Positions 28,387 to 34,265 of a DNA stretch of 40,868 nucleotides are shown piece after piece. Position 1 is the first letter of the stretch, and each line of letters starts with the position of its first letter. Origin of the DNA: a bacterium (GTDB taxonomy: Bacteria; Sysuimicrobiota; Sysuimicrobiia; Sysuimicrobiales; Humicultoraceae); assembly GCA_041497675.1 (NCBI GenBank), contig JBGQGY010000016.1:1-40868 (forward strand). Reading direction: 5' to 3'. Made by a program: the position numbers and the translations under genes. A model generated the notes under the pieces. It was not told the origin of the DNA. It saw only the letters and a list, made by a program, of their open reading frames with translations, and searched no databases.

Positions 28387-28409
28387 GGGCTCCTCCTAAG
28401 GGTTGGCGC

Positions 28410-28445
28410 AAAAGAGAAGAGGGGAGAAGCGTAGCCTCTCCCCTC
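28410..28445 (-). terminator. Intrinsic terminator of the 23S-5S operon
   Basis: GAGGGGAGAGGC-TAC-GCTTCTCCCCTC followed by TTCTCTTTT, just after 5S. Confidence 0.85.
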
Positions 28446-28715: not shown

Positions 28716-31779
<3,064 letters not shown>

Positions 31780-31780
31780 A

Positions 31781-31806
31781 CTCTAGGAGCAGCTGTATAG
31801 AGCCTG
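31781..31806. repeat. 5' arm of the 23S processing stem
   Basis: Inverted repeat of 28689-28714. Confidence 0.85.
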
Positions 31807-31869
31807 GCAACACATCACCGTCCCGCCGATCGATCAGATCCGCGGGTCGAGATGTCTTCGTCCATCTTC

Positions 31870-31884
31870 AGTTGTCAAGGAACT
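31870..31884 (-). promoter_or_regulatory. rrn boxA antitermination element
   Basis: AGTTCCTTGACAACT resembles boxA; preceded by two hairpins (GATCCC/GGGATC, CGTCGC-GAAG-GTGACG). Confidence 0.75.
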
Positions 31885-31983
31885 CCCCGTCGTCACCTTC
31901 GCGACGGATCCCGCCGGGATCGCCGGCAGGAACATTGAGGAACATGTGTTGCAGGCCTGTGGACAGTTTCGAGATCAGGGCAC

Positions 31984-32013
31984 AAAAAAGAGGGGATGAG
32001 CATTGTCCCCCTC
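31984..32013 (-). terminator. Terminator-like hairpin plus U6 inside the 23S leader
   Basis: GAGGGGG-ACAATGCTCA-TCCCCTC-TTTTTT; mutually exclusive with the GATGAGC/GCTCATC hairpin. Confidence 0.6.
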
Positions 32014-32043
32014 CGGGAAGCTCATCGGGCCTGCGTATGCAGT

Positions 32044-32064
32044 TTACCCGGTGGAATCCTGCAC
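32044..32064 (-). other. Candidate 6-codon uORF (MQDSTG) with perfect SD in the rRNA leader
   Basis: AGGAGG (32076-32071), 6 nt spacer, GTG CAG GAT TCC ACC GGG TAA; translation unproven. Confidence 0.4.
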
Positions 32065-32096
32065 CCAATCCCTCCTCACGTCCAAGCCAAGTTCTT

Positions 32097-32124
32097 ATTA
32101 TAGAAGGCGCCCAATCGTTGTCAA
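32097..32124 (-). promoter_or_regulatory. Consensus sigma70 promoter of the 23S-5S operon
   Basis: TTGACA (32124-32119), 16 bp, TATAAT (32102-32097); a 16-bp spacer is typical of rrn promoters. Confidence 0.9.
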
Positions 32125-32161
32125 CACCCGCTCCGGCGGCCCCCGTGTAGCGGTCCGCCCC

Positions 32162-32389
32162 CTACACGACCAGACAGGTCAGCGTGTCCGCCACCCCCGC
32201 GGTCCGCTGAATCCTTGTGATCACCGTATCGCCGAGGGACGCCATGTCCCCGGCTTCGGTCATGCAGATGATGTCGTAGGGACCCGTCACGACGTGCACC
32301 TCGCGGACCCCCTTGATCTTGCGGATCGCGATGGACGCCTTGCGGGCCTGGCCTGGAGCCGCCTTCAGCAGAACCACGGCAGAAACCAC
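32162..32389 (-). CDS. Stand-alone Lrp/AsnC ligand-binding domain protein
   Basis: IKGVREVHVVTGPYDII...IQRTAGVADTLT; no HTH; GGGAGG SD. Confidence 0.88.
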   Translation of the reverse strand: MVSAVVLLKAAPGQARKASIAIRKIKGVREVHVVTGPYDIICMTEAGDMASLGDTVITRIQRTAGVADTLTCLVV

Positions 32390-32429
32390 CGGACTTCACC
32401 TCCCTGTTGGGACGCAGCACGCGTAGACG

Positions 32430-34265
32430 CTAGGACGGTTTCCCGGACCGTTTGCTCAGCAGGAGATCCAGCCGGTCCACGGTCCGCGCGAGGATCGCAA
32501 ACGCACGCTCCACCGGCTCCGACGTGGAAAGATCCACGCCGGCCGCCTGCAGCGCATCGAGAGGAAACTTGGATCCCCCGGCCTTCAGGAACGCCAGGTA
32601 GCTGTCGGCCGCGCCGGGCGTACCCGCCAGCACGCGCTCGGCCAGCGCGTGGGCCCCGGAGATACCGGTCGAATACTGAAACACGTAGAAGTTCATGTAC
32701 AGGTGCGTGGGGAACTCGGCCCACATGATGCCGATACGGTCGTGATCCACTTCGACCTCGCCGCCATATCCTTCGGTGAGCAGTTGCGCCATCAGGTCGA
32801 TTAGGCTTCCGGCGGTAAGAGCCTCACCCCGCTCGACGCGCTGGTGCGTCTCCAATTCGAATCTCGCCAGCGTCGGCATCACGAAGAAATAGCGATAGAA
32901 GTTGCTCATCGCCTCTTCGAGCACGGCCAATTGTAGATCGGGATCGGTGTTCGTCGCCACGAGGTGCGCGCGGACCATGGCCTGGTTGAAGTTCGACGCG
33001 ACCTCGGCCAGAAAAATCGGATAGCGCGCATAGATGAACGGTTGCGTCTTCCACGAGTAATACGAGTGCATCGAGTGTCCCAGTTCATGGGCCAGCGTGC
33101 TCATGCTGAAAATATCGTCGGTATAACTCATGAGGATAAATGGGTTGGTCCCCTGTGATCCTGCTGAGAAGGCGCCCGAGCGCTTCCCCTTATTGGGATA
33201 GATGTCGACCCACCGCTGTTCCAGCACACCGCGACGCATGAGCGACACGTACTCGTCCCCCAAGGGTCGCATGCCCTGACAGATCCAGTCGACCGATTGC
33301 GCGAAGGGGACCGTTGGCTTGCTCGCTCCAAGCGGCGCGCTGCGATCGTAGGGGAACAGCCGATCGTAGCCGAGCGCGCGGCGCCTGACGCGCCAGTATC
33401 GGTGCCACGTTGGGAGGTTGCGGCGGAACACCTCGATGAGATTGTGAAATACGTCGACCGGGATGTGGTTTGGCAGCAACGCCGCCTCCAGCGCCGACCC
33501 ATAGCGCTTGGCGCGGGCCATGAACACGTCTTGTTTGACGCCGGCGGCGATGCAGTTGGCCATCGCATTCTTGTTGGCCAGGTGCGCATCGGCGTAGCTT
33601 TCCCATGACGTCCTGCGGACTTCGCGATCGAGATCCGTCTGCAGCCTCGAGAGGTTGCCCTGCGCCACTTCCATCGGCTCCGCCGATCCCGTGGCGTGCG
33701 CGGGACCGAAGGTGAGATCGGCGTCCGCGAGGACGCCATGTGTCGCCGCCGCCGTACGGAACGGGTCGAGCACGTACCCTAACAGTTCCTCGACCTCGGC
33801 GGTGCGAACGTGCGGCTGTCGGCGTTCGAGCCGGTCGAAGTAGTGCGCGTACGGGGCGAGGCGCGCATTGTCGCGTGTCCACCGCCGCAGCGTCTCAAAC
33901 CCGATGGCGACAATTTCTGGATCGGCGAACGCCGCGGCGGCGGTGGCCCTGGCCATCAGCCCCCGCGCCCGGTCGAACCTCGCCGCCGATTCTTGATCGG
34001 TCGTGTCGGCCGTGTGCCCCATATTGGCGTAGATCATGACGTGGCCGAGGGACCGGAAGGCCCGCTGGAAGGCCTCAAACCACTCGGTCAGGCGGGGCGG
34101 CCCGTCGGCGAGACTGACTTTGAAGCGCCCGAGTTCGGCCAGTTGGGTCTCGACCTCTTTGAAGGCTGCGTCCCAGGCCTGCGCGGACGGAAACACCGAC
34201 GCCATGTCCCAGGTGTGCTCGATCGCGATGGCACTGCGAGGAAGCACGGCGCGCAGATCTGTCAC
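32430..34265 (-). CDS. pepF: Oligoendopeptidase F (M3B)
   Basis: [42 protein letters not shown]. Confidence 0.95.

Follow-up and report, generated by a model that had tools for sequence, protein, structure and literature searches.

In the attenuators of the trp, his and leu operons, a leader open reading frame (ORF) led by a Shine-Dalgarno (SD) sequence lies over the first of four RNA segments; pairing of segments 1:2 and 3:4 gives the terminator, and pairing of 2:3 the antiterminator. Antibiotic-responsive leader-peptide attenuators, known from Term-seq, sense the state of the ribosome, control resistance and ABC-F genes and depend on stalling. For ribosomal RNA (rRNA) itself, Kingston and Chamberlin reportedly described, in 1981, how polymerases pause or are attenuated in vitro within the rrnB leader of E. 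coli, a so-called turnstile. Here we analyse an element in the leader of a 23S-5S rRNA operon, on the minus strand (32092-31975) of a 40,868-nt bacterial contig (JBGQGY010000016.1, assembly GCA_041497675.1), the whole of which we refer to as the window. Comparison with relatives indicates that the 23S-5S transcript begins with this element as a genuine RNA domain under selection, because it is conserved in at least six other genomes while the adjoining spacer has diverged to 22-50% identity. We tentatively read it, with less than even confidence, as a transcription attenuator that precedes the antitermination site and gives way when something occupies the SD-bearing strand. The leading candidate for the occupant would be a 30S subunit or a ribosome, and this more specific proposal is considerably more doubtful.

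Relatives were sought by scanning genome contigs for a 30-nt pattern taken from the start of 23S, which returned at least 120 loci, 80 of them with flanking sequence, and homologs of the leader were found by blastn of the window leader against the loci listed. The matches listed did not include the genome of the window itself, and the number of homologs, at least six, is a minimum. Leader identity to the window is 85% in L006 and 77% in L074 (both labelled 'bacterium'), 77% in L048 and 74% in L018 (Armatimonadota), 72% in L073 (Candidatus Nitrosymbiomonas, Armatimonadota) and 71% in L003 (Caldilineales). The 23S 5' regions of the homologs are about 93% identical to that of the window, L048 and L074 holding too little 23S to compare. 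Both the 23S (93%) and the leader (71%) of L003 group with the Armatimonadota loci, and the contig has probably been mis-binned. Along the leader, conservation between the window and the six homologs is uneven: the element, taken from the start site to GUGCCC, is 64-88% identical, the 40-50 nt spacer that follows it 22-50%, the stretch from CCUCAAUG to boxA 55-82%, and that from boxA to 23S 79-93%. Within the element, the blocks invariant in all seven sequences are UUGGC near the start site, GGAG, CCCGAUGAG, GCUCA, CCCCUC and UUUUUGUGC, and the tract of U residues downstream of CCCCUC has six U's in six of the seven and five in L073.

A covariance model built from the seven sequences scores those same seven at 105-136 bits and matched nothing else at E <= 10 in the window and 88 loci (566 kb); this search covered 88 of the 120 loci, including only eight of the short loci L081-L120, and the E-values of such a home-made model are rough. 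Among the 75 of 120 loci with at least 350 nt of upstream sequence, which were surveyed for a promoter, a hairpin and a U-run, a perfect promoter with a hairpin and U-run about 215-229 nt before 23S was found only in the six homologs; most of the other surveyed loci are probably linked operons. No Rfam 15 family matched the leader (31778-32300) at gathering thresholds or at E <= 10, the matches at E <= 10 being the start of 23S and, also at the 23S start (31782-31766), Ocean-VII with 13 bits against a gathering score of 53.5. A known RNA family or ribozyme was accordingly rejected.

Transcription of the operon would begin just ahead of the element. A sigma-70 consensus promoter on the minus strand (32097-32124; TTGACA 32124-32119, 16-nt spacer, TATAAT 32102-32097) matches at 12 of 12 positions, is the only promoter-like site in 31000-33000 (shuffle mean 0.4) and would place the start site near 32091 +/- 2. 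Its hexamers and 16-nt spacer are perfect in all seven sequences (window, L003, L006, L018, L048, L073 and L074), and in none of these did we find a conserved second sigma-70-like promoter between the U-tract and 23S, in agreement with the claim of an earlier note on this DNA that a consensus promoter precedes the leader and none follows. The best candidate for a second promoter matches at 9 of 12 positions with a 19-nt spacer, lies inside the processing stem described below and occurs in the window and L006 only, L003 being without any match; it was rejected. As a separate observation, the octamer TTGACAAC is common to the -35 region (32119-32126) and the boxA-like box (31871-31878) on the minus strand; this may be coincidence, because the boxA of this clade contains the -35 consensus.

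Every motif that the earlier note had described is present on the minus strand at the positions given there. AGGAGG (32076-32071) is followed after 6 nt by GTG (32064-32062), which opens the mini-ORF GTG CAG GAT TCC ACC GGG TAA (32044-32064; M Q D S T G). All seven sequences share the SD-like GGAG without change. L003 carries a masked run of 10 N within the mini-ORF region, which leaves six readable sequences, and in all six the GTG and an in-frame stop are kept despite a 3-nt length change between lineages. The spacing from GGAGG to GTG is 6 nt in the window, L006, L074 and L048, and L018 and L073 have 8 nt between GGAG and GTG; the stop (TAA in five sequences, TGA in L006) is preceded by six codons in the window, L006, L018 and L073 and by seven in L074 and L048. 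The SD-like motif and putative upstream ORF (uORF) of the earlier note are thus borne out in sequence, as is their conservation, together with that of start and stop, in the aligned 23S leaders of relatives. This conservation of frame is at most suggestive. In the window the mini-ORF frame can also be extended upstream, as far as a TTG at 32085 (13 codons), and in the five remaining readable sequences the corresponding frame continues without a stop until a few bases from the start site; the TTG was not taken as the start because no SD precedes it. A 66-aa ORF starting with TTG (32068-31868) was rejected as coding, being only 15 aa long in L006, L018 and L073.

Around the SD, the RNA contains purine- and pyrimidine-rich segments that can pair in more than one way. 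These are R1 (GGAGGG, 32070-32075, SD-like and overlapping AGGAGG), Y1 (UCCC, in the 5' strand of a hairpin P3), R2 (GGAGGGG) and Y2 (CCCCUC, before U6); R1 can pair with either Y2 or Y1. P3, the putative antiterminator (GAUGAGC/GCUCAUC, 31995-32026, -15.6 kcal/mol), has an inner stem that joins Y1 (UUCCC 32019-32015) to R2 (GGGGA 32010-32006). In the putative terminator (31984-32013), GAGGGGG (32013-32007) pairs with UCCCCUC (31996-31990, containing Y2), and U6 (31989-31984) follows directly, then GUG; an intrinsic terminator would have about 7-9 nt of U-tract immediately behind a G+C-rich hairpin. The stem has 7-8 pairs and an energy of -9 to -15 kcal/mol, with -9 to -10 kcal/mol and a loop of 10-12 nt in the window. 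P3 (32026-31995) and the terminator helix (32013-31990) share bases and are therefore mutually exclusive, as had been proposed, and both are preserved: the 24 pairs of P3 together with P0, the helix of R1 with Y2 and its outer extension, are formed in 97.0% of 166 cells (46-63% in slid controls), and the eight pairs of the terminator helix in 98.2%, over the seven sequences. CCCCTCTTTTTT is unique in the window against 0.02 expected, and U6 is the only run of at least six T in 40.9 kb on both strands.

Between these segments lies a small hairpin, P2 (CUGC-AUAC-GCAG, 32031-32042), in place of which the start-codon region GUGCAG (32064-32059) is able to pair with CUGCAU (32042-32037); the latter pairing is formed in 73% of cells in the seven sequences, with one compensatory pair (A:U to G:C). 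The whole is enclosed by an outer clamp, P0o, that the earlier note had missed: its 5' strand GGACGUGA (32076-32083) pairs across the U-tract with UUGUGCCC (31978-31985), which lies partly beyond it. The seven pairs of the clamp (32083-32076 with 31985-31978) are formed in all seven sequences; five of them vary on one side only (A/G opposite U, C/U opposite G) and one is compensatory, G:C becoming A:U in L003 at 32082:31979. Of the 11 pairs of P3, the outer seven are almost invariant, and its stem is therefore uninformative on pairing. RNAalifold on six sequences gives a closed consensus fold, GGAC(A/G)(C/U)(A/G)(A/G)GGAGGG with CCCCUC-UUU-UUGUG-CC, which surrounds a poorly defined central region and P3.

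Two folds of the complete element can be distinguished, and in both CCCCUC is paired right up to the U-tract. Fold A combines R1:Y2 with Y1:R2 (P3), and fold B combines R1:Y1 with R2:Y2, the hairpin with U6. Whole-element folding was carried out on six sequences (window, L006, L074, L048, L018 and L073), L003 being excluded for its masked bases. Folded to the end of the U-tract, fold A and fold B have -42.4 and -33.9 kcal/mol in the window, -37.8 and -37.3 in L006, and -42.5 and -42.2 in L074; fold B is the minimum-energy fold in L048 (-43.3), L018 (-40.1) and L073 (-43.0). In the minimum-energy fold of the window R1 pairs with CCCUCU, and in L048, L018 and L073 with the Y1 region. The pairing scheme of the earlier note therefore needs qualification: its terminator helix is preserved, corresponds to fold B and is the minimum in three of six sequences, but in the window the best fold pairs the SD strand, not GAGGGGG, with CCCCUC. 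Its remark that the SD strand is complementary to the 3' arm of the terminator holds, in that R1 pairs with Y2 in fold A. A further pairing it had put forward, GCAGGCC with GGCCTGC (31957-31951), is complementary in the window but has its second partner in the fast-evolving spacer (31933-31977, minus strand), which also carries indels, and was rejected.

Equilibrium snapshots at growing length gave R1:Y1 once Y1 is made, a transient P3 and then fold B once Y2 appears in L074 and L018, and P3 first and then fold A in the window. When the 5' part was masked and the RNA was folded from CCCGAUGAG onward, P3 became the minimum by 1.2-5.3 kcal/mol, with Y2 single-stranded, in six of the seven sequences. 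The pairing scheme is, on sequence grounds, that of a four-segment attenuator, supplemented by a 1:4 pairing and by the outer clamp.

These properties suggest how the leader might work. The element forms the 5'-most domain of a pre-rRNA leader, that of a 23S-5S operon unlinked from 16S in an Armatimonadota-type bacterium, starting a few bases after the start site of the only recognisable promoter. With its 5' part free, the RNA would adopt fold A or fold B, and the CCCCUC helix abutting the U-tract would have the geometry of an intrinsic terminator. With R1 and the mini-ORF region occupied, P3 would form, CCCCUC would be left single-stranded and polymerase would run on to boxA and 23S; in the read-through RNA the outer clamp (GGAC.. 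with ..GUGCC) would then close the domain. Termination at U6, its relief by occupancy and the identity of the occupant are all points that we infer. R1 would most economically be occupied by a 30S subunit or ribosome that initiates at the conserved SD-GUG mini-ORF. Both folds place the SD and the first G of the start region in helices, and a ribosome would therefore probably need to reach the nascent RNA before Y1 is made, some 55-60 nt later. Taken further, the leader could sense free 30S subunits or initiating ribosomes through the mini-ORF and thereby gate 23S-5S transcription, which we consider unlikely, though worth stating: binding at the mini-ORF would keep the SD strand unpaired, let P3 form and admit polymerase into 23S-5S, and without binding CCCCUC would be paired against U6 and transcription would stop before boxA. 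A function in balancing the subunits would follow by inference from this sensing.

A number of results weigh against an attenuator, and against a translated one in particular. A strong terminator before an essential rRNA operon with a single promoter would be costly. In the window the branched fold A, whose closing helix would be at best a putative terminator, is favoured over the canonical terminator fold by 8.5 kcal/mol, and a terminator scan with a loop limit of 8 nt made no call on the leader hairpin. The terminator hairpin of L073 (-15.6 kcal/mol) beats P3 (-11.7 kcal/mol) even with the 5' part masked. The fold of 31975-32092 (118 nt) has a z-score of -1.53, 14 of 200 shuffles folding as well, and AGGAGG-N5-8-GTG occurs twice in the window against 1.4 expected, which is chance level; from the window alone the arrangement is not beyond chance. 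Covariation is weak, given seven sequences from about four lineages: it is not significant, 72 of 500 shuffles reaching the observed P0 and P3 values with the one compensatory pair, and most stem columns are invariant and speak neither for nor against pairing. The compensatory pair 32082:31979 itself lies downstream of any likely termination point, and selection therefore acts on the read-through RNA. As to translation, the frame is kept over two independent lineage comparisons, for which the chance is about 1 in 9, and in a crude survey, too rough to use, only 7 of 18 long ORFs had an SD-like core close to the start. The mini-ORF peptides (MQDSTG, MQDSSG, MRSQSSG in two sequences and MVQPSA in two) are not conserved, and neither regulatory codons nor a shared codon pattern were seen in the six readable sequences. 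Hence the architecture of a ribosome-mediated attenuator, as claimed in the earlier note, is matched in its SD-led ORF and exclusive hairpins but not in its peptide and codons.

Other explanations have to be considered alongside an attenuator. The element could be a structural, non-terminating 5' domain of the pre-rRNA leader, whose first 115 nt or so are closed by the clamp and hairpins, the U-tract serving as one clamp strand and the SD-like run as the purine strand of a helix. Such a domain could protect the untranslated leader against Rho or nucleases until the boxA complex assembles, or aid folding or processing. The clamp, paired in 7/7 sequences and holding the sole compensatory change beyond the U-tract, fits this well, as does a closed fold that is both the RNAalifold consensus and the minimum-energy fold of the window, and an operon with one promoter must in any case be read through. 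However, clamp pairing alone does not explain U6, because three of its U's, all invariant, bulge out of the clamp, which does not require them; the window has no other T6, the fold with hairpin and U6 is preserved and is the minimum in three of six folded sequences, and the in-frame GTG...stop is left unexplained. We regard a purely structural role as possible but on the doubtful side. The terminator-like features would also fit a constitutive partial terminator or pause, a 'dampener' or turnstile without ribosome or factor sensing, which would set the fraction or speed of polymerases going from a very strong promoter into 23S-5S. A promoter that is perfect in all seven sequences and a peptide that is not conserved are in line with this idea. 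Yet a simple hairpin would be enough for it, and the four-segment pairing, the invariant GGAG and the mini-ORF would be without a role; it seems rather unlikely to us.

The earlier note had itself raised the alternative that the terminated transcript is a small RNA (sRNA). An independent sRNA gene of about 100-105 nt, with its own promoter and terminator, would leave 23S to be transcribed by read-through or from an unrecognised promoter. A consensus promoter, a structured and conserved body, a U-tract and a fast-evolving spacer are indeed the layout of an sRNA gene. What makes it improbable is that the seven sequences lack a conserved sigma-70-like promoter between the U-tract and 23S, that the clamp covariation involves bases 3' of the U-tract, that Rfam offers no match even at E <= 10 and that no second copy exists in the window or the 88 other loci. 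That the motifs came together by chance in a GC-rich intergenic region is very improbable: the modest fold z-score and the chance frequency of SD and GTG would allow it, but conservation in at least six other genomes beside a diverged spacer, and a covariance model that recognises its own seven sequences and nothing else, would not be expected. A mimic of a ribosomal-protein binding site was also considered and rejected, as blastn-short of the element against 23S and 5S gave only identities of 7-9 nt and one 12-nt match with a mismatch, all at E >= 1. Pairing of the element with the 23S-5S spacer (duplex -82.9 against -77.5 +/- 6.0 in 200 shuffles) was not distinguishable from background and was rejected, as was pairing with the post-5S region or with the rest of the leader.

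If the element is an attenuator, it would act ahead of the putative antitermination site. U6 ends about 100 nt before a boxA-like box, GTTCCTTGACAAC (31883-31871, minus strand), which is the distance the earlier note had estimated, and 207 nt before 23S. After the variable spacer comes a conserved CCUCAAUGUUCC block, followed by a putative boxB-like hairpin read from the sequence (CCGUCG 31907-31902 with CGACGG 31892-31887, minus strand) and by the box itself, whose core TTGACAAC is invariant in the seven sequences. GTTCCTTGACA agrees at 9 of 11 positions with GYTCTTTAANA, and L006 and L048 at 10 of 11, this consensus being the gamma-proteobacterial one given in the accessible part of PMC5725501. 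A long hairpin separates the box from an invariant strand (31781-31807, minus strand; 7/7 sequences), the leader half of the 23S processing stem, which pairs with the trailer at 28714-28689 through 15 and 11 contiguous pairs. Elsewhere, L011, L039 and L052, which are Chloroflexia metagenome-assembled genomes, have a 10-bp G+C-rich hairpin and then CUCUUUUU about 150-170 nt upstream of 23S, following a tRNA-like stretch; a TTGACAAC box comes after the hairpin in L011 and L039, and closer to 23S each of the three carries a second boxA-like box. Terminator-like hairpins a short way ahead of 23S may not be confined to Armatimonadota. tRNA-like sequence upstream of 23S was seen in inspected loci of Chloroflexia, Blastocatellia and Chthonomonas.

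The window (65.9% G+C) encodes 23S at 31777-28715 (RF02541, 2746 bits; 3063 nt for 2925 model positions) and 5S at 28569-28453 (RF00001, 99.8 bits), both on the minus strand. It holds no 16S rRNA gene in its 40.9 kb, and its sole tRNA, a tRNA-Met, is 21 kb away from the 23S-5S operon. The six homologs are likewise unlinked, because no 16S or tRNA was found in the 2.7-4 kb upstream of their 23S. This appears to match the published arrangement of Fimbriimonas ginsengisoli, which, according to the part of PMC4072686 available, has one 23S-5S operon and two distant 16S genes. The 23S match of L018 (3994-6857) spans model positions 1-2003 in 2864 nt, about 860 nt above the model, which suggests a large insertion (an intervening sequence or intron) without counterpart in the 23S of the window.

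The same strand carries, upstream of the leader, an M3 oligopeptidase gene (34265-32430) and a 75-codon ORF for a stand-alone Lrp/AsnC ligand-binding (RAM) domain (32389-32162; PF01037, E = 1.1e-12), whose stop is 38 nt ahead of the -35 box with no terminator in between. The 3' end of this ORF is alignable upstream of the 23S promoter in L006, L018, L073 and L003 and, further upstream, in L074, so that its synteny with the rRNA operon seems conserved. Downstream of 5S, the operon appears to end in a terminator (28405-28443, minus strand) of GAGGGGAGAGG-CUACG-CUUCUCCCCUC and a U-rich tail, UUCUCUUUUG, which shares with the leader module the purine/pyrimidine design of GAGGGG...CCCCUC followed by U-rich sequence. 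This common design speaks for the attenuator reading, as does the epimerase gene beyond it, which has AGGAGG, 5 nt and a GTG start. Runs of at least five T are very rare in the window, six in total on both strands, which suggests that few genes of this genome end in canonical U-rich intrinsic terminators.

Linkage of 16S, 23S and 5S is usually explained as a means of keeping their stoichiometry, as stated in the consulted part of a preprint (10.1101/705046), and unlinked lineages therefore raise the question of how the subunits are balanced. The leader described here is a concrete and testable candidate for such balancing where 16S and 23S are unlinked. Were it a sensor of initiating ribosomes or 30S subunits, synthesis of large-subunit rRNA would be tied to the supply of 16S-containing subunits, and it would be the first rRNA operon gated by translation initiation, as far as the literature searched shows. 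The open literature searched yielded no account of a terminator or uORF module within an rRNA leader; on rRNA-leader terminators there was nothing in the accessible parts of PMC2965389 and PMC10319736 or, by term search, in PMC4807359. Even without a role for the ribosome, a conserved module resembling an intrinsic terminator inside an rRNA leader is unusual, and with the element a phylum that has been little studied would gain a new RNA motif.

How, then, does the leader compare with the systems known to control or shape such transcripts? The E. coli rrnB turnstile is alike in the idea that an rRNA leader can retain or shed polymerases ahead of the structural genes, but rrnB is not known to involve an SD or mini-ORF, its operon is linked, and there is no relation in sequence or structure. 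With the boxB-boxA-boxC antitermination region of rrn operons this leader shares a boxA-like box and a preceding small hairpin (31907-31871), whereas the element is a separate module 100 nt upstream of boxA, without counterpart in the descriptions found in the accessible parts of PMC5725501 and PMC10250234. Helicobacter pylori, with its unlinked rRNA genes, has atypical 23S-5S precursors whose maturation has been studied (PMC6582327); in the available part of that study the 23S-5S forms a transcription unit of its own, which has a leader and an RNase III stem, and no leader terminator or uORF is mentioned there. A leader-trailer stem is present in this operon too.

The closest resemblance in logic is to attenuators of protein-coding operons. 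As in the antibiotic-responsive leaders, a very short uORF without amino-acid logic precedes a putative intrinsic terminator; in contrast to them, nothing here points to stalling, and the target is 23S-5S. As in the trp, his and leu attenuators, a short SD-led ORF overlaps segment 1 of four segments, 1:2 and 3:4 pairing gives a hairpin with a U-tract, and occupation of segment 1 would favour 2:3. Unlike them, the leader element has no conserved regulatory codons or peptide, its segment 1 is the SD itself, it has an extra 1:4 pairing and a clamp across the U-tract, and what it would control are rRNAs, where the classical attenuators control biosynthetic enzymes.

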